From a virus: DNA of 64,000 nt. The stretch is taken from the IMG/VR virus record IMGVR_UViG_3300036770_003016; one strand, written 5' to 3'. The translations under genes and the position numbers were made by a program. Under the pieces are notes generated by a model, which had not been told where the DNA came from, did no database searches, and saw nothing but the letters and a program-made list of their open reading frames with translations. Shown here piece by piece: positions 7,682 through 64,000 of this stretch (the first letter of the stretch is position 1; every line of letters begins with the position of its first letter).

Positions 7682-9376
7682 TTACAATCTAGACGATAAA
7701 TACCCTGGAGGCAAAGCAGTTTTCTCTTCTGCCATGTTGTAATTGCCCCAAACATCTCCACCTTCTATCATCAACTCTTCTTGTTGTCCATCATTTAAAA
7801 ATCCTATAGGTAACATCTCTTCTTCGATCTGTTTAATTTTTTCTTCGTAGATTGCTTGTCTTAAATTAACATCCGTTATTTCTTTGAAGTATGGATTGGT
7901 AGTTAACCATCCAAAAAGAACTAGACACATAACTAAATCGTCATGATAACCTTCGTCGGCCTCATATGAATCTCTTTTTTCAATAAATGTTGACATCTCT
8001 GATATCACATCAGAGTCAAAAACTAATAACTTTTTCTCTTCAATTAAAGATTTAAAGTTAAAACAACCTATGCGTTTTATCTTTCTATCTGTATGAACTC
8101 CAAGTCTTGTCTTACCTGCACCACCAAAACCACCAGTTATTTGTTGCCCTCTTGAAGTTTTTGATACAAAGAATATATTTTCATACTCATATTCGGTATA
8201 TAAAATGTGTGCGACTTGTTCAGACATATTTACTTCAAGTAAAACATAAGCCTGATTGTACTGCGATGCAACTTTATAAATGACAGATGGATATACGAGT
8301 GGAGCTATACTATTGTTTCTATATTTGGCAACCAATTTATATGGTATTTCTGTAACATCTATGACAACAAATGCAGAATAATCACCACCTACGCCTTGTG
8401 CGGTATCAACGACAAGAACATATGATCTAGGTTTAACTAAAACTTTACCATGTTGATCTTTTTGTCCTACAACAGGATACTCATATACATCAAGACCCTC
8501 ATCTTGTAATATTGGAGTGTTATACGACATTTGTTCAATTGCATCTGCACGAATAAGAGTAAGTGCAGAACCAAGAAACTTACATAGAACTTCTTGATTA
8601 TATTTTACTTCTCCAAGAACACCTCGTTGTTCTGCTGCCCATTTATCATCACGACCTGGAATTTCCCAATATGGAATGAACAAAGGAACAAAACCGTTTC
8701 TACCATTCTCTGCATCATTCCAAAACTTCCAAAAGTGATTGTAACCAAGAGGTGTAGAAGTAATTAGAATTTTTGTTGTCTTACCAGCAGAAACTACAGG
8801 GTAAACAGAAGTAAAGAACTGGTCTGCAATATTGTTTGGAATGATTGCAGCCTCGTCAATATACAGAAGGTTGACTGACTTGGAACGAATACCTGCCGCA
8901 GTAGTTGCAGCAGTAAATACTTTAGAACCATTCTCTAGTTCTATGTCTCCTTTGTTCCATGTCTTAATACCTTGTTGCATCCATATAGGTAAATTCTCAT
9001 ACATCAACTGATAACGAGAAAGAATTTCTCTGGCTGTTTTGTCTTTGTTTGCTAGAATCGCAACATTCTTATCTGCTTGAAACAAAGTATACCATAAAAT
9101 ATATGCAGCAGATGTTGTAGTTTTTCCTGCCTGACGAGATTCCATAATGATAACTCTACGGTTATCATGAATGGTTTTTATTTTTTTCTTTTGACAATCG
9201 TAGAGTTTGAACTGTTGTATACCGTGATCAAGTGTAACGATGTAACAGTAGTTATCAATAAAGTAAATAGGATCTTCAGAACACTTTTGGTATTCTATAA
9301 TTTGTTCTTCACTAAATGATATTGGAATACCAACTTTTTTAAGGTTGGCATTTCCTAAGTAACTTGTATCAGACAT
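7682..9376 (-). CDS. gp17: Terminase large subunit
   Basis: Walker A SRQAGKTT, Walker B LLYIDEAA, ITSTP motif III, nuclease VDTAQG.G.DYS and HDDLVM; no intein evident. Confidence 0.98.
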   Translation of the reverse strand: MSDTSYLGNANLKKVGIPISFSEEQIIEYQKCSEDPIYFIDNYCYIVTLDHGIQQFKLYDCQKKKIKTIHDNRRVIIMESRQAGKTTTSAAYILWYTLFQADKNVAILANKDKTAREILSRYQLMYENLPIWMQQGIKTWNKGDIELENGSKVFTAATTAAGIRSKSVNLLYIDEAAIIPNNIADQFFTSVYPVVSAGKTTKILITSTPLGYNHFWKFWNDAENGRNGFVPLFIPYWEIPGRDDKWAAEQRGVLGEVKYNQEVLCKFLGSALTLIRADAIEQMSYNTPILQDEGLDVYEYPVVGQKDQHGKVLVKPRSYVLVVDTAQGVGGDYSAFVVIDVTEIPYKLVAKYRNNSIAPLVYPSVIYKVASQYNQAYVLLEVNMSEQVAHILYTEYEYENIFFVSKTSRGQQITGGFGGAGKTRLGVHTDRKIKRIGCFNFKSLIEEKKLLVFDSDVISEMSTFIEKRDSYEADEGYHDDLVMCLVLFGWLTTNPYFKEITDVNLRQAIYEEKIKQIEEEMLPIGFLNDGQQEELMIEGGDVWGNYNMAEEKTALPPGYLSSRL

Positions 9377-15388: not shown

Positions 15389-16938
15389 AATTTTTTTGAA
15401 GATAAAAAACTACCTTTTTTATTTAACAGAGATTCAATTTTTGTTTTGCGTTTTTTCATTTCTTCAGATGAATTACTTGGATTACCAAACAAAAATGATT
15501 TCATTTTTTTATAAGTATCGTCAATTCTGAAAATTCTATCCCAATTTTCATATTGATTTTTACCAGTCCAACCAATATTGTGTATAAATTTAGATTTAAT
15601 TTCTGGGTGTTGAAAAGTACAGTTAGGATCAGACTGTATTCCTCCTTTACCATACTTGGAATTTAAATTTACATATTTTAAATCAGTTTCTTTTAATGAC
15701 TTAAAAACTACAAATCCATCATATGGTTCACCCATAGGAAGAAGTCTTTCAAATTTATAATTTTCTATAAAAGCTTCATTGAATATTTTAATGTCATTAT
15801 GTTTACCATTAAAAATTAAAATACCACTTTCAACATGATTTAAATCCCAATTTTCTTCTACTTGACAAGCTAAAAAATTATCTCCCAAAATATTTTTTGG
15901 AAAATTTGTATAATCGGCTTGTTTAAATACGCAATCTCCATCAAGCCAAATTAAATAATCGTCATTATGTTTTTGTAATACATCTTGAATAACAAAAGAT
16001 TTATAACTAAATCTCTCTATCATTGTTTTTACATAATCAGCATGTTTTGATTTTTTTCTCAATTCTTTTTTCCAACTGTCATGATGTGGTATTTCTGTAT
16101 TAAAATCTACATATGTGATATTAGGATGATTTATTTGTGGTACATTTCCTTCATAATAAATTTTAGCTTTAAAAGAAGTATAAAAATTTGAAACTTGTAT
16201 AAATGTTTCTATCCATTTTTTACCATACAATAAAAAACCATTTTCATTAAATGTTGTAAAAAATAATATATTGTTAGATTGGTTTCTTTTTTCTTGCATT
16301 ATTAAATTAGACATTCTCCAAGAATCATAATCATTTAAATGATTCATATTACTAGCTGCATGATGAATAAAAATATTTTTTTCTATTAGTAATTCATTAT
16401 TTAAAAATTGAACATCTTCATTGTCAATATAATTATTTCCTATAACAGAATAGTATTCACGCACTGCTCGATGTAAATTATGCATACCATATGATTGTGT
16501 ATCTTTATCTGTTATTGATTTTGCTTCTTCAATCATATAGTCTAATGCTAATTTTAAAACTGGATGATTTCTTTCAGCTCCAAAAAAGAAATTAGCTATG
16601 TTGTCTAATTCTTTCATGAATACTGCTTTTACTTTACCATTTACAAACTCATTTAAATTTTTCTTACAAGTAACATCCAAATCTGAATAGTAACCTCCAT
16701 AAATATAAATTACTGCTAAACGCCAAAAATCTGCTCGCATAATTGGTTGTGGCAATGATTCATACAACCTATGCACTTCTTCTCCAAAATTCTGTAATAT
16801 AAAAGCAGAACACATTTCATCACTACTAATTTTTCTTTTTAAATGTGGATTACTATACTTCCAAGAATTGTATTGATTCTTTAAAGACTTTGGAATATCT
16901 TCAGTTTTCCAAGTTTGCCATAATATATTAGGTATCAT
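15385..16938 (-). CDS. Two-domain glycosyltransferase (GT32/Och1-like DXD domain + second GT-A-like domain)
   Basis: MIP..LWQTWK, RADFWRL..IY.YGG.YSDLD; second domain RFSYK, LIWLDGD, ESG. Confidence 0.85.
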   Translation of the reverse strand: MIPNILWQTWKTEDIPKSLKNQYNSWKYSNPHLKRKISSDEMCSAFILQNFGEEVHRLYESLPQPIMRADFWRLAVIYIYGGYYSDLDVTCKKNLNEFVNGKVKAVFMKELDNIANFFFGAERNHPVLKLALDYMIEEAKSITDKDTQSYGMHNLHRAVREYYSVIGNNYIDNEDVQFLNNELLIEKNIFIHHAASNMNHLNDYDSWRMSNLIMQEKRNQSNNILFFTTFNENGFLLYGKKWIETFIQVSNFYTSFKAKIYYEGNVPQINHPNITYVDFNTEIPHHDSWKKELRKKSKHADYVKTMIERFSYKSFVIQDVLQKHNDDYLIWLDGDCVFKQADYTNFPKNILGDNFLACQVEENWDLNHVESGILIFNGKHNDIKIFNEAFIENYKFERLLPMGEPYDGFVVFKSLKETDLKYVNLNSKYGKGGIQSDPNCTFQHPEIKSKFIHNIGWTGKNQYENWDRIFRIDDTYKKMKSFLFGNPSNSSEEMKKRKTKIESLLNKKGSFLSSKKL

Positions 16939-17654
16939 TTTTGAATATACTCTTTATTTAAATCTTTCAAAGTAAAAGTATTTAAATTATTTGTTACTGT
17001 TGACAACTTTAAATTTTCTTGAGTTTTTTCTGTAGAAATTCTTTGAGCAGTTTTTAATGGTCCTAAAATATTCATGACTTCAGCTGGAGCTGCATTTGGT
17101 GAGATCATATTTGCTCTATTTTGTAGAGTCAACAATAAAGATTCTTCTTGATGTGTATTTACATTTTGTGTGTCAAAAGAACCATCATCAAGTTCAGCTT
17201 TTATTTTAGACCAAAGATCAAGTTCACGAATTCTATCTTTAGCAACTAATTGCATGTTGGCTCTACCATAAAGTTTTTGTTCAATTTCAATTTGAATAAG
17301 TTCTTTCTCTAATTCATCTTCTTCTTTTTCTAAATTTCTTTGAAGTTTTTTAATCTCTATTTCGTTTTTACGATATTCAAAAGAAAGTTGCATTGTAGTT
17401 TCAAAAAAAGCATTTTGCTCACGGACACATTGCCAATATTTTGATGCATTAGTTGGAAATTTAGCATCATTTAAAACCGACACTCTCATTTCCGTTTCAG
17501 TTCTAAAAATTTGTTTTTTGGACCATGTATCTTTTAGTTCGTCTTTGAGTTTTACCAATTTAGAGAAATCGTCTTCATCAAGAATATTAATTAAAAATTC
17601 TTTTTGATTGGCAAAAGTTGGTATTATATTACGCAATTCATTGTTGTTTTCCAT
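16935..17654 (-). CDS. Hypothetical coiled-coil protein
   Basis: 239-aa helical ORF with AGGA SD, ATGA-coupled to the glycosyltransferase. Confidence 0.75.
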   Translation of the reverse strand: MENNNELRNIIPTFANQKEFLINILDEDDFSKLVKLKDELKDTWSKKQIFRTETEMRVSVLNDAKFPTNASKYWQCVREQNAFFETTMQLSFEYRKNEIEIKKLQRNLEKEEDELEKELIQIEIEQKLYGRANMQLVAKDRIRELDLWSKIKAELDDGSFDTQNVNTHQEESLLLTLQNRANMISPNAAPAEVMNILGPLKTAQRISTEKTQENLKLSTVTNNLNTFTLKDLNKEYIQK

Positions 17655-17680: not shown

Positions 17681-18715
17681 TTATATTGTATTTATTGCAG
17701 GTACAATTTGATTGTATTCTTCTGTTGAAGATGATGGATAACCAAAACTATCCCCACCAAAAGTTAATGCTGCATTTTGAATGCCAGCACCAGCATGTTC
17801 TACTCTAGCTTGAATTAAATTACCACCAGCTGACCATGATGTACCATCGTATTCTTCTGTTAATGAAAGACGACCCCAATTATAACCACCAAAAGCTAAT
17901 CCTGCGTCTGCGGTACCAGCACCAACTAGAGAATCTCTACCTGTACTTAAATTACCACCAGCTGACCATGATGTACCATTGTATTCTTCTGTTGAGAGTG
18001 TAAGACCACTAGCCCAACCACCAAAAGCTAATGCTGCATCTTGAGTACCAGTACCAGCAAAAGAATACCTACCTGTAATTAAATTACCTCCAGCTGACCA
18101 TGATGTACCATTGTATTCTTCTGTTGAGGTTGATAACAGACCACTGGAGTTAAAACCACTAAAAGCTAATCCTGCATCTTGAGTACCAGCACCAGCATGT
18201 TCATATCTACCTGTAATTAAATTACCACCAGCTGACCATGATGTACCATTATATTCTTCTGTTGAGGATAGATAAGCATTATTTATATCAAAACCACCAA
18301 AAGCTAATCCTGCATCTTGAGTACCAGCACCAGAATGTTTATATCTACCTGTAATTAAACTACCACCAGCTGACCATGATGTACCATTGTATTCTTCTGT
18401 TGAGGATAAACGAGTAAAACCACTATTATAATTAGCAAAACCACCAAAAGCTAATGCTGCATATTGAGTACCAGCACCAGCATGTTCTAATCTAGCTTGA
18501 ATTAAATTACCACTAGTTGACCATGTTTGAGTTATAGCATAATTTAAAATTAAACCTACCGCCTTTATTTTACCTGTAGACATATTATAAAAAATATCGC
18601 CAATATCAGATACAGTTGGATTAGGCATATCGCCAATATAACTATTTACCAAACTAGAATTTTCTAAATTAGTATTTGAAATTTCTTTTGCCAATAATCG
18701 TGTTATAACGCCCAT
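17681..18715 (-). CDS. Six-bladed Kelch-like beta-propeller protein A
   Basis: Six W-S-x-GGNL-x3-R-x3-AGAGTQxAxLAFGG-(loop)-STEEY repeats. Confidence 0.85.
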   Translation of the reverse strand: MGVITRLLAKEISNTNLENSSLVNSYIGDMPNPTVSDIGDIFYNMSTGKIKAVGLILNYAITQTWSTSGNLIQARLEHAGAGTQYAALAFGGFANYNSGFTRLSSTEEYNGTSWSAGGSLITGRYKHSGAGTQDAGLAFGGFDINNAYLSSTEEYNGTSWSAGGNLITGRYEHAGAGTQDAGLAFSGFNSSGLLSTSTEEYNGTSWSAGGNLITGRYSFAGTGTQDAALAFGGWASGLTLSTEEYNGTSWSAGGNLSTGRDSLVGAGTADAGLAFGGYNWGRLSLTEEYDGTSWSAGGNLIQARVEHAGAGIQNAALTFGGDSFGYPSSSTEEYNQIVPAINTI

Positions 18716-18718
18716 TTT

Positions 18719-19750
18719 TCACTCTGATAAAAAAATTTGTTCGAATAGATCAGTATTAGCAGTAATTGAGTATTCTTCTGTTGAATTAGATGATGAACCA
18801 CTAATATACCCACCAAAAGCTAATGCTGCATATTGAGTACCAGCACCAGCATGTTCATATCTAGCTTGAATTAAATTACCACCAGTTGACCATGATGTAC
18901 CATTATATTCTTCTGTTGAGGATAGATCACTAAAATAATACCCACCAAAAACTAATCCTGCATATTGAGTACCAGCACCAGCATGACTATATCTAGTTGT
19001 AATTAAATTACCTCCAGCTGACCATGATGTACCATTGTATTCTTCTGTTGAATTACCAACAACATTAGAAGGAATCCCACCAATAGCTAATCCTGCATCT
19101 TGAGTGCCAGCACCAGCATGACTATATCTAGCTTGAATTAAATTACCACCAGTTGACCATGATGTACCATTATATTCTTCTGTTGAGGATGTAACGGTAA
19201 AAGTAACACCAGATATCCCACCAATAGCTAATGCTGCATCTTGAGTACCAGCACCAGCATGATCATATCTAGCTGTAATTAAATTACCTCCAGTTGACCA
19301 TGAAAACCCATTATATTCTTCTGTTGAGGATGTAATGGTAAAATCAACAGTAGATGTCCCACCAAAAAGTAATGCTGTATCGTGAGTACCAGCACCAGCA
19401 TGATCATATCTAGCTGTAATTAGATTACCACGGGATATCCATATTGTGCCATTATATGTTTCTGATGAGTTTCTAGCAAAAAAATCAAGCCCACCAAAAG
19501 CTAATCCTAATCCTCCATCTTGATTACCAGCACCAGCAGCAGAAATTCTGGATCGAATTAAATTACCACCAGTTGACCATGTTCCAGGTAATCTTTTTCC
19601 AGATACATATCTTAGGTTATCACCAATATTATAGGTTAACACCTGACCAAATTTTCTGTCATTTAAATCATAAAAAAATACATTTCTAAGAATAAAAGAT
19701 GAACTTTCTCCACGAATTTTGCTTGCAAATTTTCTGGTAATTGTTCCCAT
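18719..19750 (-). CDS. Six-bladed Kelch-like beta-propeller protein B
   Basis: Six repeats of the same unit. Confidence 0.85.
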   Translation of the reverse strand: MGTITRKFASKIRGESSSFILRNVFFYDLNDRKFGQVLTYNIGDNLRYVSGKRLPGTWSTGGNLIRSRISAAGAGNQDGGLGLAFGGLDFFARNSSETYNGTIWISRGNLITARYDHAGAGTHDTALLFGGTSTVDFTITSSTEEYNGFSWSTGGNLITARYDHAGAGTQDAALAIGGISGVTFTVTSSTEEYNGTSWSTGGNLIQARYSHAGAGTQDAGLAIGGIPSNVVGNSTEEYNGTSWSAGGNLITTRYSHAGAGTQYAGLVFGGYYFSDLSSTEEYNGTSWSTGGNLIQARYEHAGAGTQYAALAFGGYISGSSSNSTEEYSITANTDLFEQIFLSE

Positions 19751-19761
19751 ATTTTATTATT

Positions 19762-20070
19762 TCAAACAGGCAAATCGACAGATGTTGGTCTTTCACCTAA
19801 CATTTGTATTCTTCTATTTTTCATCTCATCTGTTTCGTTCTCTATAACTAAATTAAACTGTTCATCCCAATTGGTTTGCATAGACTCTAAACATATATTT
19901 TGAGCTTCTTCTAAAGTTTTTTCAACGCCATTAACTCTATTTTTCCATTCTAATGCAACATTATCAGCAACAGCGTAAATATTTCCAGCATGCCCACTAA
20001 AATGACCAAGTTCTCTGTCTTGATGAGTGATAAAACCTTTACCAGTATTTATTGCTTGAATATATTTCAT
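19762..20070 (-). CDS. Hypothetical protein inside the propeller cluster
   Basis: 102-aa ORF with AAGGA SD. Confidence 0.75.
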   Translation of the reverse strand: MKYIQAINTGKGFITHQDRELGHFSGHAGNIYAVADNVALEWKNRVNGVEKTLEEAQNICLESMQTNWDEQFNLVIENETDEMKNRRIQMLGERPTSVDLPV

Positions 20071-20084
20071 ATATTTTCCTTTAT

Positions 20085-21098
20085 TTAATTATAAACCATA
20101 CTTCTAGTTGTTTCTGAATGTAAAGCAGCTGTTTTTGATCCATGAGATGCTCCAGTTCTATCATAATTGTTAGTTTCTCGAAATAATAATGTACTAGTAT
20201 TTGTCCATGATATGCCATCATATTCTTCTACAATATTTGACCCCCAAGTAACTTCAACATATGTAATACTTCCATAAATAATAGTTTGATCTATATTTAA
20301 AGAACACGCATTTGCTTCTACTCGAGCTCGATTGGTATTAGTGCTAGTTGACCATGATGTACCATTGTATTCTTCTGTTGAGTATGTAAGATAAGGTGCA
20401 TTACTAAAAGTACCACCAATAGCTAATGCTGCATCTTGACTACCAGCAGCAGAAGGTACATTTCTACCTGTAACTAAATTACCACCAGCTGACCATGATG
20501 TGCCATTATATTCTTCTGTTGTTGAGGTTACTCCAGCATTACCAAAAGTTAATGCTGCATCTTGAGTGCCAGTAGCATCATTCCTAAACCTATTTGTAAT
20601 TAAATTACCACCAGCTGACCATGATGTACCATTGTATTCTTCTGTTGAGTTTAATGTATTACTATTAACATCCCAACCACCAATAGCTAATGCTGCGTTT
20701 GGACCACCAGTTCCAGCGAAATATATTCTAGATGTAATTATGTTACCCTCAGCTGACCATGTTATACCATTATATTCTTCTGTTGTGTTTGTATAGTCCC
20801 AAACAATCCGACCACTAAAAGCTAGTGCTGCATTTTGAGTGCCAGAACCACGATGAGTATTCCTACTACTGATCATATTGGATATATAAGTCCAAATTTT
20901 AGTTTGTGGAACTATTGTACGAATATGATATCCATCGAAATAGAGTTCTATAAACTTTAATTTGTTTTCAGTTGTGTTATACCATATTAAAGCATTGTTG
21001 CTTGAATTTGGTTCATAATCAGTAGACCTTTTAACTAAAGGAATACCAACAGGACCATTACCATAAATACTGTTTGCAAATTTTCTAGCTTTAGACAT
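20085..21098 (-). CDS. Kelch-like beta-propeller protein C (terminal blades degenerate)
   Basis: Four clear and two divergent repeats. Confidence 0.8.
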   Translation of the reverse strand: MSKARKFANSIYGNGPVGIPLVKRSTDYEPNSSNNALIWYNTTENKLKFIELYFDGYHIRTIVPQTKIWTYISNMISSRNTHRGSGTQNAALAFSGRIVWDYTNTTEEYNGITWSAEGNIITSRIYFAGTGGPNAALAIGGWDVNSNTLNSTEEYNGTSWSAGGNLITNRFRNDATGTQDAALTFGNAGVTSTTEEYNGTSWSAGGNLVTGRNVPSAAGSQDAALAIGGTFSNAPYLTYSTEEYNGTSWSTSTNTNRARVEANACSLNIDQTIIYGSITYVEVTWGSNIVEEYDGISWTNTSTLLFRETNNYDRTGASHGSKTAALHSETTRSMVYN

Positions 21099-21109
21099 TT
21101 TTTTATTTA

Positions 21110-23416
21110 CTATAAAATAGGAAGATATCTTACGACAATTTCAGCTTGAGCGCTTGGAGCTTCTACAAACACTAAACTAGTACCGCTTACAGTATAATCT
21201 TCAGTTGGTTCAAAACAAAGACCATTCACAAATACTAAAATATTATCAACATTTCTTCCAGATTCCCATAATGAAAAAGAAGTTGTAGTACCATTACCAG
21301 TAAATTTTTGTCTTGAATATGATAATGTAACTGATGTTGCAACAGAAATTGTACCAGATGCTAAATCTGTTAATGTCGTATTAGCTGTACCTGTAACATC
21401 TCCAGTAAGTGTAACTGTTATGACTGGATCAGGTTTATTGGTCATATTGGCCCAATCAAGGTCTACACTACCTCCAATTGGTCCCCATTCTGTACCATTA
21501 TGTCCTTCAAATCCTTTTGTTTGTGGATTATATCTGAACATTCCTTCTGAACCGTATGTGTCTAAAATAGAATAATCAAATGTTGTTGACTCACTTTGAT
21601 AAATTGTTATGATATAATTAGTTGCTGGTTGATTCGTCACAACAGTTAATGCTGCATCTGATGGAGTATTGTATAGTTCTGTAAGTTCTGGTGGAATTCT
21701 AAATTCTAAAGCATCAAAGAAACCTAGATAATTATCAATTTTTTCTACAAATTCTAATTGTATTGTTGTTGGAGAACTTCTATTCTGTAAAAAACTTGGA
21801 TATTGACTAGAATAATAGACAGTAGGGATAGTAATATCATACAGCTCACCAGGCACTAAATCGTCAAATGATTTGGTTGTTGTGAAAGTGCCAGTTGGTG
21901 CATATATCCACATTCTTGAAGTTCTATCTGTAACACCAATTTGAGGATACAGAGTGTCCATATTTAAAACTATATTAATACATTCATCATTTGTAGTTGC
22001 AGTTCCATTAGCTTCAACTACAGATGTATTAAGATTCATTTCAAATGGTTCAGTTGTTTCAGATGGAACTATTTGATTAAATTTTAAATATGTTGGATTA
22101 GTCGAAGAAACTGTTATTCCTCCGTCAACAATAATTTCTGGAGTGGCATATAACTGAGTGTTTATTGGTGTGATAACATTGTCTACAATAACAATATCGG
22201 TCAATACCAATGAAGTACCAAAAATGTTTTCACCAAAAATATCTTTAACAGATATGTCAGAGTTAATGTTTAATAAAGGAGTAACAACTTCTATTTCAGT
22301 AGGTACCAACTCTTTTATAGTTGTTAGACTTTTATTATATTCTTCTGTTGAGGATACATAACTAGTGTTATATCTATCACCACCAAAAGCTAATGCTGCA
22401 TCTTGAGTACCAGCACCAGCATGCCAGGCTCTACCTGCAATTAAATAACCACCATATGACCATGATGTACCATCGTATTCTTCTGTTGAGGAAAAATATG
22501 TATAATTAGCAATACCACCAAAAGCTAATCCTGCATTTTGAGTACCAGCACCAGCATGACTTGATCTAGCTGTACTTAAACTACCACCAGCTGACCATGA
22601 TGTACCATCGTATTCTTCTGTTGAAGATAGATAATTGTCAACACTATACCCACCAAAAGCTAATCCTGCATCTTGAGTACCAGCACCAGCATGATTTGAT
22701 CTAGCTGTAATTAAATTACCACCAGATGACCATGATGTACCATTGTATTCTTCTGTTGAGGATAGATAAGTGTTATTCCCACCAAAAGTTAATCCTGCAT
22801 CTTGAGTACCAGCACCAGCATTCCAGCCTCTAGCTGTAATTAAATTACCACCAGCTGACCATGATGTACCATCATATTCTTCTGTTGAGAATTGAAAACC
22901 ACCATCAGTTTGGCCACCAATAGCTAATCCTGCATCTTGAGTACCAGCACTAGCTAAATCATCTTTAGCTTGAATTAAATTACCACCAGCTGACCATGAT
23001 GTACCATTGTATTCTTCTGTTGAGGATAGATAATCACTAGATTGACCACCAAAAGCTAATGCTGCATCTTGAGTACCAGCACCAGCATGAAACATTCTAC
23101 CTGTAATTAAATCACCACCAACTGACCATGCTGCAATTAATACTTGTACATCAGTTTCTACATCTTGAATTTCTGTAGAAACTGATTGATCTGCCAAAAG
23201 ATTTATCTCTTCAAAGTAAATTCCATTTTTCAAATATATGTTGTACCAAGAGTTAGTTGATAGACCTATGTCATATACACCATCAATTGCTGGAACAACA
23301 TCTTCCATTATTTGAGAAAGGTCAGCTTGGCCACCTTCTGCCGAAACGCCAGAGTACCCAGAATAACCTGATACTCCAACATAAGTGCTGCCTAAAAAAT
23401 TACTTAATCTGATCAT
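21110..23416 (-). CDS. Virion fibre protein containing six-bladed Kelch-like propeller D
   Basis: Short SGYSG N-terminus, six blades, then fibre-type modules (FRYN....FEG.NG.EWG, GDVTG, FTGNG.TT.F...VFVNG...P..DYTVSG). Confidence 0.8.
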   Translation of the reverse strand: MIRLSNFLGSTYVGVSGYSGYSGVSAEGGQADLSQIMEDVVPAIDGVYDIGLSTNSWYNIYLKNGIYFEEINLLADQSVSTEIQDVETDVQVLIAAWSVGGDLITGRMFHAGAGTQDAALAFGGQSSDYLSSTEEYNGTSWSAGGNLIQAKDDLASAGTQDAGLAIGGQTDGGFQFSTEEYDGTSWSAGGNLITARGWNAGAGTQDAGLTFGGNNTYLSSTEEYNGTSWSSGGNLITARSNHAGAGTQDAGLAFGGYSVDNYLSSTEEYDGTSWSAGGSLSTARSSHAGAGTQNAGLAFGGIANYTYFSSTEEYDGTSWSYGGYLIAGRAWHAGAGTQDAALAFGGDRYNTSYVSSTEEYNKSLTTIKELVPTEIEVVTPLLNINSDISVKDIFGENIFGTSLVLTDIVIVDNVITPINTQLYATPEIIVDGGITVSSTNPTYLKFNQIVPSETTEPFEMNLNTSVVEANGTATTNDECINIVLNMDTLYPQIGVTDRTSRMWIYAPTGTFTTTKSFDDLVPGELYDITIPTVYYSSQYPSFLQNRSSPTTIQLEFVEKIDNYLGFFDALEFRIPPELTELYNTPSDAALTVVTNQPATNYIITIYQSESTTFDYSILDTYGSEGMFRYNPQTKGFEGHNGTEWGPIGGSVDLDWANMTNKPDPVITVTLTGDVTGTANTTLTDLASGTISVATSVTLSYSRQKFTGNGTTTSFSLWESGRNVDNILVFVNGLCFEPTEDYTVSGTSLVFVEAPSAQAEIVVRYLPIL

Positions 23417-23460: not shown

Positions 23461-23904
23461 TTATAAAGTCGGCCATACTATGTTAGATGGATCATTTTGA
23501 TTTGTCACATCTCGTAAGTTTTGTATATAGACATCTATCTTATTTATCTCTTCTGGACTGTCATCTGTTGGTATTCCCAATCTAATTTGAGACTGATATC
23601 TAAATAATCTCCATTCAACTTCTTTTATCTTTTCGTCTCTTTTGAATCTTATCGTTTGCCATTCTCTTTCAACTATTTCTGCTATCTCTTCTTCTGAGAA
23701 ATCTACAATTTGCCAAGTTGTACCTGACCATACAAGTCTTTGTCTTTCATTATGAATTGGTGGGTCTTCAGCTAAAACATAACCAGCATTAGCAATTTCT
23801 TCTTCTGTGAAAGTGTTTTTTTCTGTACGAGTCAAACCATTAGACAATCTAATCCTGTCTGGTAAAGAACTTGGATAACCACCTTTATAACTATATAAAC
23901 TCAT
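23461..23904 (-). CDS. Tail fibre assembly chaperone-like protein
   Basis: W..IR.KRD..I...W...Y.Q.LRD...Q.DP.NI.WP pattern. Confidence 0.75.
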   Translation of the reverse strand: MSLYSYKGGYPSSLPDRIRLSNGLTRTEKNTFTEEEIANAGYVLAEDPPIHNERQRLVWSGTTWQIVDFSEEEIAEIVEREWQTIRFKRDEKIKEVEWRLFRYQSQIRLGIPTDDSPEEINKIDVYIQNLRDVTNQNDPSNIVWPTL

Positions 23905-23918
23905 TTTTTAAAACTCCT

Positions 23919-25661
23919 TTAATAACCAGTGCCTGACATATAACTACCAGCATATATCGTCCATGATGTTCCAGTTGAATTGCCAACAAATACATAACTT
24001 TGGTTTGCAGTCAAAGTAAATGATGCGTAAGCTGTATTTGTTGAGGCTATCATTCTTTGGCCAGTTGTTCGATTATGATTTCCAACTAAAATTTCTACAA
24101 CAGGAACATTTCCAGTTGAAGTTTTATTAAAAAATGTAGCTTCATATACAATTCCTGGCGAACCTACTGTACCACTAGTACTTGCATTTCCTTCGTATCT
24201 TATACGGGTATAATTTGTTCCAGAAGAAATAGTTGATACCCTTTGATATGAATTGTCAGCAGCTCCAATATGTATTTTATTAAAAGGTGGATTAGTTGCA
24301 CTTAAACTGCTGTATGCAGTTGAACCAGAACCAAAAGTTAAATATGTATTTGAACCAACAAAAACAGTTGTATAATTAGTAGAATTGATAGTGAATGTTG
24401 GTATAGTTACGGATATATTCGCATCATCAGAAGAAGAGTTTTGTAATCCTGTCCAACCTGATCCAGGATATGAAGCTCCACCAGCACCTAATGTTGGCGC
24501 TTTTGTTCCAGATACTCTTGTGTATGATGACCCAGCTGGAGTTTGTGATGTATCATTGATAGTTACTGAACTTGAAGTTGCTATTATGGTTCCACTAATG
24601 CTGTTAGCTCTTAAACGAAATTGAAAAGATTCTGCTGCACTTTCAGTAGTTAAATCTGAATTTAATGTAAATGTTACTGAGCCAGCACTACCGGATATAG
24701 CAACACTACCTCCACTAGTAGCATTAGCAGGTGAACTAAAATCAGCAGCAGTAACAGAACCAGAAGTAATCATTTCCCAATATAATGTTCCACTAGAAAA
24801 ATTACCACTAGTAATGCTTATATTAAATGTGACAGAACTACCTTCATTAACTGAACTTGTAGTTGGAGTAACAGTAGCTGTAATTGGAGTAGAACTATCC
24901 GTAATAGTTAAAGAAGCACTACCTAAATTGAAACCATTATAACTGACTTGAACATTTAAAGTTTCTGTACCTTCAGTAGTAACATCTGCAATTGTTGTAT
25001 AAGTAACATTTGTAGTTCCAGGACCTATATCAATCAAACTAGGTAAAGATGTAAAATCCGAAGCATTTGCTGTAGAACCAGTATATGAAAGGCTAGCAGC
25101 TGCATCGGTAAAAATAGAAGATAATGAACCTACATTTCCAATCGTAATCTGTAGAGTGCTTGATGAAGAATTTTCATTTATTGTAGAAGATGTTAAAGTT
25201 ACAGAACTAGTACAAGCAGGGATGTTGTAGGTTCCAGAAGTGTATACAACTGGACCACTAGTGCTACCTGTTCTAATTTCAATTTGAAATGTTTTAGTTG
25301 TTTTTGATGTATTTCCTATAAATTTTGTAGCTACGTAAAAAGAACCAGTTTGTGTAGCACTAAACACAGTAAAACTTCCAGAAGTAACACCACTTGCAAA
25401 ATCAGCTGAACTTGAATTTGAATGTAATATTGTATAATATAATGTTGTGTTTGTTAAAATACCTTCAGTTGTTAAAGTTATTACTTGTGATGTATATTCT
25501 AAAATTGTTCCGCTGTTAAGTGATAATGACAAATATTTAATTGTTTGTGGCCAAAGATTAGATTTTTTTGCATTGTAAGCATCAAACCTATCGTAAACAC
25601 CTGGTGCTTCTGCTAAAGAAGTTTCTCTTTTTACACCAATTAAACCAGTATTTCTTCTCAT
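23919..25661 (-). CDS. Ser/Thr-rich virion protein with Ig/Calx-beta-like repeats
   Basis: Repeated V.EG.SVTF.I...TLY......ADF......D.TTE..E.F...R.GS.SG units; N-terminal GLIG motif. Confidence 0.65.
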   Translation of the reverse strand: MRRNTGLIGVKRETSLAEAPGVYDRFDAYNAKKSNLWPQTIKYLSLSLNSGTILEYTSQVITLTTEGILTNTTLYYTILHSNSSSADFASGVTSGSFTVFSATQTGSFYVATKFIGNTSKTTKTFQIEIRTGSTSGPVVYTSGTYNIPACTSSVTLTSSTINENSSSSTLQITIGNVGSLSSIFTDAAASLSYTGSTANASDFTSLPSLIDIGPGTTNVTYTTIADVTTEGTETLNVQVSYNGFNLGSASLTITDSSTPITATVTPTTSSVNEGSSVTFNISITSGNFSSGTLYWEMITSGSVTAADFSSPANATSGGSVAISGSAGSVTFTLNSDLTTESAAESFQFRLRANSISGTIIATSSSVTINDTSQTPAGSSYTRVSGTKAPTLGAGGASYPGSGWTGLQNSSSDDANISVTIPTFTINSTNYTTVFVGSNTYLTFGSGSTAYSSLSATNPPFNKIHIGAADNSYQRVSTISSGTNYTRIRYEGNASTSGTVGSPGIVYEATFFNKTSTGNVPVVEILVGNHNRTTGQRMIASTNTAYASFTLTANQSYVFVGNSTGTSWTIYAGSYMSGTGY

Positions 25662-26839
25662 AGGAATGTCAATTCTGCTAATCTGTTATAACTAGTGCCA
25701 TTAAAACTTGTAAACTGTCCGCCAACATAAAATGTTTTGGTTGTTCCTGGTTTTAAAACTAATGTAGCAACAGCGTTATTAAAACCAGTTCCTATATTAA
25801 AGTTCGTATCTAAAGTACCATCAGAGTTCAATCTAAATAATCTTCCGTGAGTAATACCATTAAAAGCACCAAAATAACCATAAACTAATATTTTATTATC
25901 AGGTTGTATATGCACACCAGATACAGTTCCCCCGTCAGAACCTGTACCAATATTACTATTAAAAGTTGTATCTTCGACAAGAGTAGCACCTATTCTTCGG
26001 CTAAGACCTCTAGCATTTCCAGCAATAAAATTTCCAGTGAAATATATTTCAGTGCTTGATATTGTTAAAGAATTTACAATACTAGAATTGTATGTATAAG
26101 AAGTAACTGCACTACCATCATAATTTAATCTAACATTATAATTTCTAGTAATAGAATTAAATTGTGTGAAACTACCAACAACAATAAATTGACTGGAAGA
26201 TGTGCTTGTTATTTTAAAAACTGTACCATTAGCACCTCCACCAAAATTAAAAGTAGTTGTATCTCTTGTTCCATCACTATTTAATCCTGCTATTCTATTA
26301 GCACTCACTCCATTATAAAATTGAAAATCTCCACCAATCCATATTTTTCCAGTTGAATGTAAAAAAATAGTTTGAACTTGTCCTGTAGGTCCAATTCCAC
26401 CAGTATTAAAAGATGTGTCTAATGTGCCATCACTATTTAATCTTAAAAAACGAATCTGTTGGACGCCATTATAACCATTAAAATTTCCTCCAACTAATAT
26501 TTTACCATCAGGTTGCAAAACAATATCTGATACTACAGAATCAAAACCAGAACCGCCTGGATTAAAAGTAGTATCTACACTGCCATTAGGCAATAATCTA
26601 ACTATTCTATTTTGGGTGGTTCCTTTATAGGTATCAAAATTTCCTCCAACTAATAATTTACCATCAGGTTGTACAACTATTGTATTAACTATTGCTGTAC
26701 CACTTGTTAATGAAAAACCAGTACCAACATCTAATGTTGAAGATGAATTTAAAAATTTTAAATGTAAATCTCCAACACCAGTAAAACTATTTTTTTGGCC
26801 TGTTCCAATTAAACCACCATCTTTAGTATAAAACCCCAT
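25658..26839 (-). CDS. Delta-60 (DUF5122-like) beta-propeller repeat protein
   Basis: Repeated QPDGK.LVGG.F and RLNSDGTLDT.F. Confidence 0.85.
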   Translation of the reverse strand: MGFYTKDGGLIGTGQKNSFTGVGDLHLKFLNSSSTLDVGTGFSLTSGTAIVNTIVVQPDGKLLVGGNFDTYKGTTQNRIVRLLPNGSVDTTFNPGGSGFDSVVSDIVLQPDGKILVGGNFNGYNGVQQIRFLRLNSDGTLDTSFNTGGIGPTGQVQTIFLHSTGKIWIGGDFQFYNGVSANRIAGLNSDGTRDTTTFNFGGGANGTVFKITSTSSSQFIVVGSFTQFNSITRNYNVRLNYDGSAVTSYTYNSSIVNSLTISSTEIYFTGNFIAGNARGLSRRIGATLVEDTTFNSNIGTGSDGGTVSGVHIQPDNKILVYGYFGAFNGITHGRLFRLNSDGTLDTNFNIGTGFNNAVATLVLKPGTTKTFYVGGQFTSFNGTSYNRLAELTFL

Positions 26840-27222: not shown

Positions 27223-29895
27223 TTATCCGAAAACGAGTGCCATTGTTATGGCTTTACCAACACTGGCTGATGCTGCTGAACCAGAATAACCAGAAATACC
27301 TGAGAAACCAGATATTCCAGTACCAGAATAACCAGACCATCCTGATCTACCAGAATAACCAGAAATGCCAGAATGACCAGAGATTCCTGAGTAACCAGAT
27401 ACCCCTAATCCAGAATACCCAGAAATTCCAGCACCAGAATAACCAGAGTAACCTGATGTTCCAGCACCAGAATAACCAGACCATCCTGATCTACCAGAAA
27501 AACCAGATATACCAGAAAAACCAGACAACCCTTCTCCAGAATAACCAGAGTAACCAGATGATCCAAGACCTCCAGTTCCTTCTCCAGAATAACCGGATAC
27601 ACCAGAAGAACCAGCTGAACTAATTATTTTCCAAGTACTTCCATTATATATCAATATTAAAAATATACCAGTTACATCCAATAGTAAATTTTCAGCTTCA
27701 TTTTCAATAGTAGAACCATTTCTATCTATTGTTAAATTATTGTTTGCCCAACTATCCCCATCAACAAGTTCTATATTATCATTTAAATTTGGAGTTAAAG
27801 GCAAAGATATAGTAAACGGACCACTACTTGTATCAGCTATTATTCTTTGTTTATGTGATGCTGTATAATTACTAGTTATACGATCCCAAGAAGAACCAAT
27901 TCCTGAGTAACCTGAAACTCCTTGAGATCCAATACTAGTAACTACTTGCCATGTTGTTCCATCATAAACAAAAACGACAGAAATACCCAATACATCCAAT
28001 AGTAAATTTTCAGCTTCATTTTCAATAGTAGAACCATTTCTATCTATTGTTAAATTATTAATGGCCCAACTAGAACCATCCATGATCTCAACATAATTCC
28101 CAATAGAAGGTGATAAAGGTAAAGTTATAGTAAACGAACTATTACTTGTATCTGCAATAATTTTTTCACCAGAAGATGCTACATAGTTTTCAGTTTTACG
28201 AATCCATGTCGAAGAACCTCCTGGTAAACCAGAATACCCAGAATACCCAGATAAACCAAAACCAGAATAACCTGAAAGTCCTGGTTCACCAGAGTAACCT
28301 GATTCACCAGAGTAACCTGAGAAACCTAATTCGCCAGAATATCCTGAGAAGCCAGATTCACCAGAATATCCTGAAAGTCCTGAATCACCAGAAAATCCTG
28401 AAATACCAGAGTAACCTGAGAATCCAGATTCACCAGAGAATCCTGAAAGTCCTGAATCACCAGAATAACCAGAAATTCCTGAGAAGCCAGATTCACCAGA
28501 GAATCCTGAAGTTGAGTTACCACTAAATCCAGAAAGTCCAGAAATACCTTGAGGGCCTTGTGTTGTAAGACCAATAGTAACATAATCTATTTCTACATTA
28601 ATATTAGCAAAACCCTCAGAATAATGATATATTCTTGTGTTGACATATCCATTATTAATATATGGTACATCACTAATTACATCAAATATATGTGAAGCAA
28701 AAACTAAATTTGTTCCTGTAAATGTACCTATTATATCCCAAGAAGAAGAGTTATTATTATAGATTTCAAAATAAATTATATGATTCGTGTGTGTATATTT
28801 TAATGCTAATTCTACTCTATTAAAATTAGCAACACCTGTAAAATCAATCTCGATAGAATAACCTGGAGATCCACTGACTTCAGAAACAACATAGTAATTG
28901 TCATCACCAAAAGTTTGAATGTCTGTTACATCACCTGAAACATATGTTCCTGTAACTGTTGTTATAGAATTAGCATCATAGAAAATTGAATCTGGTGCAA
29001 CACCACTAAAACCACTATAACCTGAAATACCTGATCCTGAATAACCTGAGAAACCTGAATCACCAGAAAATCCAGAAATACCAGAATATCCAGAAATTCC
29101 TGAGAACCCAGATTCACCAGAGTAACCTGAGAAGCCAGATTCACCAGAGAATCCTGAAAGTCCTGAATCACCAGAGAATCCTGAAATACCTGAGAAACCT
29201 GATTCACCAGAGTAACCTGATTCACCAGAGTAACCTGAAAGTCCTGAATAACCTGAAATACCAGAATAACCTGAGAAGCCAGATTCTCCAGAGTAACCTG
29301 AGAAACCAGATTCTCCAGAGTAACCTGATTCACCAGAGTAACCTGAGAAGCCAGATTCACCAGAGAATCCTGAAAGTCCTGAATCACCAGAGAATCCTGA
29401 AAGTCCTGAATAACCTGAAAGTCCTGAATCACCAGAATAACCAGACCATCCTGATCTACCAGAATAACCAGAAATGCCAGAATGACCAGAGATTCCTGAG
29501 TAACCAGAATAACCAGATGCGCCTGGTGATCCTTTAATTTGTCCTATAAGTACCCAAGAAGTTCCATCCCAATAATATAAGTTTCCTTCACTCTCAACAT
29601 AATAAACATCACCTTGCGTATTATCATTTTCAGGTAAATTAGAAAAATCGGATACTGAACCTTTAATTTCAATCGATGAACCTGGAGCTCCACTGTACCC
29701 AGATAGACCTTGTACATCCGCAGTATTTACCCATGTTCTAGTTCCATCTGTGTTTGCTGTTAAAACATAAGAATTTCCTTGAGGTAATCCTAAGTCTGGT
29801 TCAGCTTCACCTAAACTTAAAAATTCATATCTACTTGAAGATACATTAGATGAAGGTATCTTTTTTACTTTTCCGCTGTGTATTCTATTATTCAT
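27223..29895 (-). CDS. Collagen-like (Gly-X-Ser)n fibre protein 1
   Basis: Three long SG[YFIELD] blocks separated by globular domains, two of them duplicated (IIADTS...F.I.LP..P...NNLTIDRNGSTIE). Confidence 0.8.
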   Translation of the reverse strand: MNNRIHSGKVKKIPSSNVSSSRYEFLSLGEAEPDLGLPQGNSYVLTANTDGTRTWVNTADVQGLSGYSGAPGSSIEIKGSVSDFSNLPENDNTQGDVYYVESEGNLYYWDGTSWVLIGQIKGSPGASGYSGYSGISGHSGISGYSGRSGWSGYSGDSGLSGYSGLSGFSGDSGLSGFSGESGFSGYSGESGYSGESGFSGYSGESGFSGYSGISGYSGLSGYSGESGYSGESGFSGISGFSGDSGLSGFSGESGFSGYSGESGFSGISGYSGISGFSGDSGFSGYSGSGISGYSGFSGVAPDSIFYDANSITTVTGTYVSGDVTDIQTFGDDNYYVVSEVSGSPGYSIEIDFTGVANFNRVELALKYTHTNHIIYFEIYNNNSSSWDIIGTFTGTNLVFASHIFDVISDVPYINNGYVNTRIYHYSEGFANINVEIDYVTIGLTTQGPQGISGLSGFSGNSTSGFSGESGFSGISGYSGDSGLSGFSGESGFSGYSGISGFSGDSGLSGYSGESGFSGYSGELGFSGYSGESGYSGEPGLSGYSGFGLSGYSGYSGLPGGSSTWIRKTENYVASSGEKIIADTSNSSFTITLPLSPSIGNYVEIMDGSSWAINNLTIDRNGSTIENEAENLLLDVLGISVVFVYDGTTWQVVTSIGSQGVSGYSGIGSSWDRITSNYTASHKQRIIADTSSGPFTISLPLTPNLNDNIELVDGDSWANNNLTIDRNGSTIENEAENLLLDVTGIFLILIYNGSTWKIISSAGSSGVSGYSGEGTGGLGSSGYSGYSGEGLSGFSGISGFSGRSGWSGYSGAGTSGYSGYSGAGISGYSGLGVSGYSGISGHSGISGYSGRSGWSGYSGTGISGFSGISGYSGSAASASVGKAITMALVFG
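27322..29508. repeat. Exact internal direct repeats: 78 bp (27322-27399 = 29431-29508) and 69 bp (27673-27741 = 27991-28059)
   Basis: Read directly from sequence. Confidence 0.9.
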
Positions 29896-63052: not shown

Positions 63053-63943
63053 TTAATCAGACTCGGCAAGGGACTTGAAGTAATCCAAATCTTCATCATC
63101 TGCAATAGATGTTTTCTTATTCAGAATTTCCTCATCATCAAACTTTGTAACAATCTCATCGTCAGCCTTAGATTTGATTGGTGCAGCACCACCTTCAAAA
63201 CCAAGAACTTTGTCTAAACGACCTTTGAGTTGATCATAAGACTTGAATTGTTTCTTCTCAGTAAACTCTTTGAGAGAGAATTCTGATTTCCAAAGTTTCT
63301 CAAGCTTCTCGTCATCACCATTGAAGAGTGCCTCTGCACTATCAAATTCTGATTTATCGTAATTGCGATAACCTTCTACATTACGAATCTTGAGTTTGAA
63401 GTTTGCACCTTCCCAGAAGTCAAACGGATTGATTGGCTTCTCATCTTCGAATTCTGGGTTCATTGCCTCAGAAAGTTTATCGAAAATCTTCTTGCCAAAC
63501 TTAAACAGTTTAACTTGACCTTCGTTTTCTGGATTCTTGGGATCAGAAACAACAAGAATATTTGCAATATAACTTAGTTTGCGTTTCTGTTTACGAGCAA
63601 TATCTTTGTTTGCTTCAATACCAGAATTCCATAGAACGGAATTGTGTTCGCAAACAGGACATTTTTCATTGATTGTTGTGAGACAGTTATCAATCAACCA
63701 ACCACCAGGTCCTTGAAACCCGTGATTGAAGATTCGTACCCAGGGTAGAGCATCATCACCATCTGCTGCGGGTGCGGGGAGAAAACGAATGATAGCCATT
63801 CCGTTACCAGATTTATCTACTTCTGGTGCCCAGAACCTTGTATCGTCTTTGGAGTTTTCTGTTGATTGGGTTGTGGCTTCGATAGCCTTTGTGAGTTTCT
63901 CAAAAGAGTTTTTATTTCGTTTGAGATTTGCAAAACTAGACAT
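63053..63943 (-). CDS. gp32: Single-stranded DNA-binding protein (start revised to MSSFANLK at 63943)
   Basis: D.RFW, GNG.A.IRFLP, HGFQGPGGW...NC.TT....CPVCE, GKKIFDK, GANFKLKI, NYD.SEF, acidic tail; AAAGGA SD. Confidence 0.97.
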   Translation of the reverse strand: MSSFANLKRNKNSFEKLTKAIEATTQSTENSKDDTRFWAPEVDKSGNGMAIIRFLPAPAADGDDALPWVRIFNHGFQGPGGWLIDNCLTTINEKCPVCEHNSVLWNSGIEANKDIARKQKRKLSYIANILVVSDPKNPENEGQVKLFKFGKKIFDKLSEAMNPEFEDEKPINPFDFWEGANFKLKIRNVEGYRNYDKSEFDSAEALFNGDDEKLEKLWKSEFSLKEFTEKKQFKSYDQLKGRLDKVLGFEGGAAPIKSKADDEIVTKFDDEEILNKKTSIADDEDLDYFKSLAESD

Positions 63944-64000
63944 AGTATTTCCTTTCGTATAAACGGAGTATAAACGGTATATTAACGACTTATCCACATA

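Follow-up and report, generated by a model that had tools for sequence, protein, structure and literature searches.

The 64,000-nucleotide stretch analysed here, termed the window, is part of the 120 kb IMG/VR virus record IMGVR_UViG_3300036770_003016, which is estimated to be 68% complete and has a G+C content of about 33%. The record stems from an uncultured T4-like phage and carries T4-type structural genes, among them those for the portal, the sheath, the large terminase, baseplate wedge subunits and collagen-like tail fibres. Within its tail-fibre module lie four genes, A to D, that are all located on the minus strand and encode propellers of Kelch-like blades. The scaffold of these blades is nearly identical in DNA within and between the genes, while two sites in each blade are highly variable. 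Gene A (17681..18715, 344 aa) and gene B (18719..19750, 343 aa) each encode a six-blade propeller, with blades at 17702-18523 and 18758-19579, respectively. The most diverged propeller is encoded by gene C (20085..21098, 337 aa), where blades C1 to C4 are clear and C5 and C6 are degenerate and barely recognisable. Gene D (21110..23416, 768 aa) has a different architecture, with a short Gly-X-Ser collagen-like N-terminus, a six-blade Kelch-type propeller at residues 97-364 (blades D1 to D6, 22325..23128, minus strand) and a C-terminal part of 400 aa without recognisable family. All four proteins match phrog_27227, a phage family of unknown function, with E-values of 9e-50 (A), 1.5e-47 (B), 7e-27 (C) and 1e-44 (D). 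They are paralogues within a very large, uncharacterised family of phage tail-module proteins.

Uniform scaffolds and variable loops

A sequence-only reading of the window had proposed about six Kelch-like blades for each of the four genes, and 24 blades of 40-49 aa can indeed be placed across A to D. Tandem Repeats Finder detects head-to-tail repeats in A, B and D with a period of 135-141 nt, 5.7-5.9 copies and 78-83% matches. The blade unit, W-SAGGNLITAR / xxH / AGAGTQDAALAFGG / loop / STEEYNGTS, is present in 22 of the 24 blades. Two examples of blade identity given in that reading are reproduced: positions 18441-18525 and 18810-18894 match at 82 of 85 nt, and the 17-nt core TGACCATGATGTACCAT occurs in 15 copies. 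Exact scaffold identity tracts between genes span 25-54 nt, the longest exact matches being 50-54 nt between genes and 67 nt within B. Mis-assembly of the array is unlikely, given that no exact repeat exceeds 67 nt and that each of the four genes has an open frame with six blades. A repeat of this length should be short enough for an assembly at read length to resolve.

The fold of the propeller is well supported by structure prediction. The AlphaFold2 model of A has a mean predicted local distance difference test (pLDDT) score of 83.5, with values above 90 over the propeller, in which 24 strands form six four-stranded antiparallel blades; the N-terminus is modelled as a helix with low confidence. 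Foldseek matches in the PDB include the designed symmetric Kelch protein SAKe6, NS1-BP, Keap1, KLHL12 and others (E 1e-17 to 3e-19, template modelling (TM) score 0.6-0.8). The Pfam Kelch models stay below their gathering thresholds (Kelch_1 15.4 vs 20.1 bits, Kelch_4 15.0 vs 21.6, PF24681 18.7 vs 50). Hence, Kelch membership rests on fold and motif rather than on a sequence model, and the hallmarks of the Kelch repeat, a unit of about 44-56 aa, namely a GG doublet and conserved Tyr, Trp and Arg residues, are present in the blades. With regard to a possible 'velcro' closure of the ring by a strand from the opposite terminus, the first full blade follows a Trp strand and the final unit stops after STEEY, but a short C-terminal strand is also modelled at residues 340-343. 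In the modelled blade, strands A and B as well as C and D are joined by short turns (QD and NGTS). The D-A loop finishes with the residues that follow the conserved Arg, and the B-C loop corresponds to the one after GG. Judged from this strand topology, both variable sites are predicted to lie on the same face of the four-stranded meander, as the sequence-only reading had anticipated. Ligands of Keap1-type Kelch proteins bind to the face that bears the D-A and B-C loops. In A to D, the propeller face with the long D-A and B-C loops most likely binds host-surface ligands, and the A to D proteins are probably virion-borne binding modules.

The uniformity of the scaffolds extends to synonymous positions. 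Blade pairs with identical residues in a scaffold column also agree in the codon in 0.89 of cases. Genome codon usage predicts 0.48. As an internal control, four- or six-fold degenerate residues were compared with their occurrences in other columns of these blades, which gives 0.57. Codon bias as the cause of the uniformity is ruled out by this control. The fixed codons are specific for the column: Ala is encoded by GCT at five columns and by GCA at two, Thr by ACA at three and by ACT at one. That different columns hold different fixed codons indicates shared descent and not codon bias. Among 29 arrays compared, the window array has the highest codon homogeneity, the rest ranging from 0.43 to 0.84. 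At these columns, other synonymous codons have become fixed in related phages, such as GCA for GCT in column 3 and GGA for GGT in column 5. Divergence among the scaffolds amounts to 0.10 at synonymous (dS) and 0.11 at nonsynonymous sites (dN). The claim of framework DNA that is almost invariant at synonymous sites and between genes is therefore well founded.

Scaffolds are not more similar within a gene than between genes. Identity between genes is 0.854 (A-B), 0.896 (A-D) and 0.866 (B-D), equal to the within-gene values of 0.845-0.899 (A-A 0.881; D-D 0.899, a mean of 0.90 among the D blades). The scaffolds of C reach 0.77-0.81 identity to those of the other three genes. Blades at the same position in different genes are about as similar (0.881) as blades at different positions (0.870). 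All 22 scaffolds could be aligned after removal of a single indel, located in B1, and the maximum-likelihood tree of these blades has a star-like shape in which none of 19 inner branches is well supported. The expectation that blades would not cluster holds in full for their position, where labels are random (15 changes versus a shuffled mean of 14.9), but only in part for the gene, where labels are weakly clustered (10 changes, with a possible minimum of 3 and a shuffled mean of 12.5). Among 494 blades from 31 arrays, the nearest neighbour of each of the 22 window blades is another window blade.

Outside the propellers, this similarity is lost. The N-terminal DNA identity among A to D is 0.42-0.53 and thus at the level of shuffled controls, so that the N-termini are, as had been claimed, far more divergent than the blades. 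Since the N-terminal DNA is as unlike as shuffled sequence and gene D has a different architecture, A to D are not recent whole-gene copies, indicating that propeller DNA was exchanged or homogenised between the genes.

The two variable sites show the opposite behaviour. The sequence-only reading had described the residues after the conserved Arg as variable, and the tripeptides that it listed are present in the blades. The first two residues after Arg are hypervariable, with an entropy of 3.0-3.1 bits, but the third is mostly His and not hypervariable. The loop after GG varies as described, measuring 5-12 aa, with a different length in almost every blade. Ser, Tyr and Trp are enriched 2.3-2.6x among the variable residues of the window, and Lys and Glu are depleted. 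Diversifying selection may act on the three codons after Arg, where dN reaches 0.83 compared to a scaffold dS of 0.10; the GG loops cannot be aligned. Throughout the family, variability likewise peaks in the first two columns after Arg (3.5-3.7 bits in 578 distinct blades), and the loop comprises 3-14 residues. Loop fragments recur between genes with the same codons, also in line with the earlier description, namely TAT CTA TCC in A2, D1 and D3 and GCT AAT TAT in A1 and D5. Overall, identical residues in the variable segments share codons at background level (7/17, 7/14 and 63/131), a point that is weakened by alignment uncertainty. Such codon sharing would fit loops that are older than the scaffolds, or convergent loops.

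The propeller family and its arrays in related phages

Relatives of the A to D proteins were found in at least 599 IMG/VR stretches, and the family comprises at least 2,861 proteins in a protein search in which 8,000 candidates were scored. Among the matches listed, the best protein relative of A is 62% identical. The sole match in the phage record collection is a distant homologue, a structural protein of Paenibacillus phage phiERICV whose gene immediately follows that of tail protein I. A C-terminal Peptidase_S74 domain, typical of fibres and spikes, is present in some relatives. Relatives have 6, 12 or about 18 blades per open reading frame (ORF), thus forming strings of one to three propellers, and several propeller genes occur per locus. 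This range of blade numbers is seen, among others, in the related loci L017:872-4087, L022:7779-11081 and L009:7395-14559. BLASTP could not establish N-terminal orthology between the window genes and their relatives. Our literature search found no paper describing these phage Kelch propellers. Among the unnamed protein families of aquatic T4-like phages, theirs is one of the larger; its members are situated in the host-recognition module and often occur in several copies. If they are adhesins, they would be a major unstudied determinant of environmental phage host range.

Comparison of related loci indicates how such arrays change. In phages with 99% identical flanks, arrays are identical or wholly different, and no blade is found in shuffled order. 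The propellers of L008 and L009 are identical by best-hit chaining, while L017 and L022, with near-identical flanks, have one 18-blade ORF and ORFs of 12 and 6 blades plus others, respectively, and share no blade above 88%. An 18-blade gene is present in both L017:1424-4087 and L021:3728-6979, whose flanks are 83-89% identical. Here, the first propeller is wholly different and the second and third propellers have 3 differences in about 1,870 nt. From these sequences, the pattern looks like a recent transfer with the whole six-blade propeller as exchange unit. Changes on a smaller scale are seen between L014 and L011, which are 99.85% identical over 11,964 nt. Of their 18 differences, 16 are concentrated in blade scaffolds, where they occupy one patch of 73 nt and one of 21 nt (L014:2184-2256 and 2919-2939, corresponding to L011:7150-7222 and 7885-7905); they are mostly synonymous. 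Patches of the same kind are found between L048 and L052. The patches in both pairs are products of short-patch recombination with a diverged homologue. The hypervariable codons that follow Arg are unchanged between close pairs (0 differences in 180 nt), hence there is no sign of loop-targeted mutation.

L056:3133-6009 and L075:4944-7821 hold three positional orthologue pairs with nearly identical 38-aa N-termini and flanks that are 4% different. Their propeller bodies are as different as paralogues, and the positional orthologue is the best match for 2 of 9 blades. L018 and L020 have 2 differences over the first 4,800 nt, including the propeller genes, and their downstream genes (L018:4800-5877) are then abruptly 25-35% divergent, which places a sharp mosaic boundary outside the propeller genes.

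Two small ORFs accompany the window propellers. A 102-aa ORF between C and B (19762..20070, minus strand) is a companion of propeller genes: it shares 33-34% identity with ORFs that immediately precede propeller triplets in L018 and L056 (E 2e-10 and 3e-13), and 34 of 68 related loci have a homologue (33-56% identity) next to their propeller genes. The loci L018, L020, L056 and L075 have it immediately ahead of three propeller genes in tandem. The ORF has no Pfam, PHROG or NCBIfam match, and its product may be an assembly factor or an adaptor. Directly downstream of A, a 239-aa ORF (16935..17654, minus strand) matches phrog_1409, of unknown function. Its tblastn matches in 42 of the 68 related loci indicate that it is part of a conserved propeller module. 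NCBIfam gave no match for A, D or either of these two ORFs.

Directly upstream of D lies a gene for a tail-fibre assembly chaperone (23461..23904, minus strand) with a match to Pfam Phage_tail_APC above the cut-off (E 1.4e-8) and to several tail-fibre-assembly PHROGs. Further upstream of the cluster, the Pfam/PHROG scan identified a collagen-like fibre gene (27223-29895); a Ser/Thr-rich gene of 580 aa is also found upstream, and a baseplate wedge gene lies in the neighbourhood. The same fibre module contains a second, unrelated propeller gene (25658-26839, minus strand) two genes upstream of the chaperone, which encodes five DUF5122 repeats (E 1.6e-60). The C-terminal 399 aa of D have no sequence match in the PDB and no relative in IMG/VR or in metagenome contigs. 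T4 late-promoter motifs (TATAAATA) are not enriched; the sole copy in the propeller region lies inside gene A and is upstream of none of A to D. Close relatives of the phage itself were sought by megablast against phage records and by IMG/VR queries with the C-terminal part of D and the 102-aa ORF, and neither search returned any.

Origin of the uniform scaffolds

In our view, the array is probably a gene family for host binding in which homologous recombination makes the blade scaffolds evolve in concert and selection maintains the differences between loops. That recombination is the homogenising force is our inference from the near-identical scaffolds in genes whose N-termini share no detectable DNA homology. 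Homologous recombination between scaffold blocks of 42 nt and 60 nt would keep the scaffold DNA near-identical in all blades of the four genes. It could act as gene conversion, unequal exchange or re-amplification, within one genome or with co-infecting relatives, and would probably use the phage's own T4-type machinery. Selection would keep two ligand-facing patches per blade different. Such a process would operate on an evolutionary timescale and would not be programmed; new specificities would arise mainly by swapping of whole propellers or short patches and by fixation of loop changes. The phage encodes the single-strand-binding protein gp32 at the end of the window (63053-63997, minus strand) and a T4-type UvsY, whose gene lies outside the window at 102557-102958 of the record. 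Identity tracts of 25-54 nt are near the lower limit for efficient T4 recombination. The idea of T4-type recombination between frameworks is supported by the presence of UvsY and gp32 and by recombination inside scaffolds in the relatives, but not in its assumption that blades are the shuffled unit.

Several observations weigh against concerted evolution by recombination. A RecA-family protein (UvsX) gave no match in the 68%-complete record, and donors for the patches in L014/L011 and L048/L052 were not found among all fetched loci. Between blades, dN/dS of the scaffold is about 1, an unusual value in view of its family-wide conservation. Possibly the homogenisation is very recent, or a few columns tolerate alternative residues (A/T/S, T/Q, A/G, D/Y/N). 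Four-gamete incompatibilities occur at 115 of 253 site pairs among the blades; these counts were set aside as proof of conversion, since repeated mutation across 22 lineages can produce them. In the relatives, scaffold codon identity is the same between genomes as within genomes, and the pool being homogenised may there be the population rather than a single genome. Finally, the clustering of blades by genome could equally reflect a lineage-specific amplification burst, as no close relative was found.

Such a burst without conversion is a possible though not a likely explanation. Here, one blade would have been amplified recently and copied into four gene contexts, and strong positive selection would have rewritten the loops, with no exchange since then. 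The low scaffold dS and the star-like tree are compatible with this, as is the slightly lower proportion of synonymous differences (pS) within than between genes (0.085 vs 0.101, permutation p = 0.024). Clear homology is seen between the loops of two neighbouring blades, B2 and B3: they match at 24 of 30 nt, and every difference changes the amino acid, as expected from duplication followed by selection. However, while the loop of B3 is nearest to that of B2, its scaffold is nearer to B4, B5, D3 and D4 (94%) than to B2 (84%). N-termini without detectable DNA homology and the different architecture of D imply that recombination between gene contexts is needed anyway. Copying of six-blade units predicts clustering by position, which is absent. 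Moreover, nearly all loops differ in length at a scaffold dS of 0.10, while aligning the scaffolds themselves required the removal of one indel only.

We regard it as unlikely that the phage's recombination machinery continually exchanges short, scaffold-bounded patches among the 24 blades and with co-infecting relatives, with populations carrying many mosaic propeller faces and scaffold identity being kept as a substrate for recombination. If true, receptors would be diversified here without the help of either a reverse transcriptase or an invertase. A still more active version, in which T4-type recombination reshuffles blades or loop patches among the 24 blades in each infection and a burst releases many receptor variants, appears quite improbable. 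Exact scaffold tracts of 25-67 nt are common to all genes, a recombination mediator (UvsY) and gp32 are encoded, relatives display short patches and whole-propeller swaps, and scaffold homogeneity is the most extreme of the 29 arrays, all of which would suit such a process. However, antibody-type or variable lymphocyte receptor (VLR)-type diversification draws on silent or incomplete donor cassettes, and none exist here: the array has seven matches in the 120-kb record and all are inside the four complete ORFs. Near-identical relatives have arrays that are either identical or wholly replaced, without any blade in shuffled order, and their hypervariable codons do not differ. Each gene has exactly six blades, and frequent unequal exchange would mostly yield non-folding products. 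Thus, neither an ongoing combinatorial process of the antibody or VLR kind nor blade shuffling, both put forward from the sequence alone, is borne out, since relatives lack differences at the hypervariable positions and exchange whole six-blade propellers or short, mostly synonymous patches. An artefact of mis-assembled strain variants or a selection on nucleotides (codon bias, RNA structure) might come to mind for a metagenome assembly of an AT-rich genome with biased codons, but is hardly credible given that exact repeats do not exceed 67 nt, frames and blade numbers are intact, codon bias was controlled (0.89 vs 0.57) and other lineages have fixed other synonymous codons.

Concerted evolution of scaffolds with selected loops therefore remains the explanation that we favour. 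The window array is the cleanest of the compared cases in which scaffold homogenisation and loop diversity are combined, and is a good model for the renewal of phage binding specificities without dedicated diversity machinery. Protein engineers might also find it of interest, since nature here supplies a Kelch scaffold of high symmetry that carries 22 to 24 different loop sets.

Comparison with known systems

The closest structural counterparts are the BTB-Kelch adaptors (Keap1, KLHL12, KLHL3, NS1-BP) and SAKe6, which share the six-bladed Kelch fold and its GG, Tyr, Trp and Arg hallmarks. Their identity to A to D is 20-27%, and the phage proteins are without BTB/BACK domain. Unlike A to D, cellular Kelch proteins contain blades that have diverged, and they do not form homogenised arrays across several genes. 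Among phages, Kelch-like virion proteins of PhiPA3, Noxifer, Phabio, PS119XW, Pectobacterium phage CBB and BcepSaruman are found in BFVD with Foldseek E-values of 1e-10 to 1e-17. Several of the phage Kelch-like proteins in BFVD are annotated as virion structural proteins, and their identity to A to D is 12-24%. To our knowledge, homogenised blade DNA or hypervariable loops have not been reported for them.

Phage receptor-binding proteins are also diversified at defined surface positions by diversity-generating retroelements (DGRs), with Mtd of Bordetella phage BPP-1 and the tentaclins as examples (PMC10743442). Such elements depend on a template repeat and a reverse transcriptase, and they alter only adenine-templated positions without affecting the length, whereas the loops of A to D differ in length. 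In keeping with the proposal that the array is diversified without a reverse transcriptase, the 68%-complete record gave no RVT_1 match; on this ground and that of the variable loop length, a DGR was rejected.

A second comparison is offered by the gp38 adhesins of T2-type phages, in which hypervariable regions are flanked by conserved glycine-rich motifs (PMC12892980). As in A to D, conserved motifs frame hypervariable loops, in this case the receptor-contacting loops of a receptor-binding protein of T4-like phages. Tetart and colleagues in 1998 and Trojet and colleagues in 2011 reportedly described that gp38 specificity is swapped by recombination between the conserved motifs. Neither reverse transcriptase nor invertase is needed for this, a further likeness to the propeller array. 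In contrast to A to D, gp38 has a polyglycine-II sandwich fold, is encoded by a single gene, forms no propeller and shows no DNA homogenisation across 22-24 repeats. Pfam and PHROG searches found no sequence relationship between A to D and gp38.

The pattern of uniform repeats with variable positions has a close parallel in the HNWD/NWD WD40 genes of the fungus Podospora anserina (het-d, het-e, het-r). Their repeats are near-identical in DNA within and between about ten genes, with other domains diverged (PMC1805685, PMC2873952). The repeats group by genome or species and not by orthologue, by which concerted evolution was demonstrated, and four hypervariable positions per repeat on the interaction face are under positive diversifying selection (PMC1805685, PMC2873952). 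Unequal crossing-over or gene conversion combined with diversifying selection is the published explanation, and recombination between the conserved parts is documented (PMC1805685). Differences are obvious: HNWD proteins have WD40 instead of Kelch blades and are intracellular NLR-type receptors of a fungus rather than tail proteins of a phage. Four hypervariable point positions in HNWD compare to a two-residue site and a variable-length loop in A to D. Repeat number varies freely in HNWD and is fixed at six per propeller in A to D, and the fungal mutation process of repeat-induced point mutation (RIP) has no counterpart in the phage genes. Still, a scaffold identity of 0.85-0.90 within and between A, B and D, N-termini that resemble shuffled sequence, and variable sites predicted in loops of the same face match the fungal system well. 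The propeller array is thus not as unprecedented as the sequence-only reading had implied, because both the HNWD WD40 repeats and the T2-type gp38 adhesins show a like pattern.

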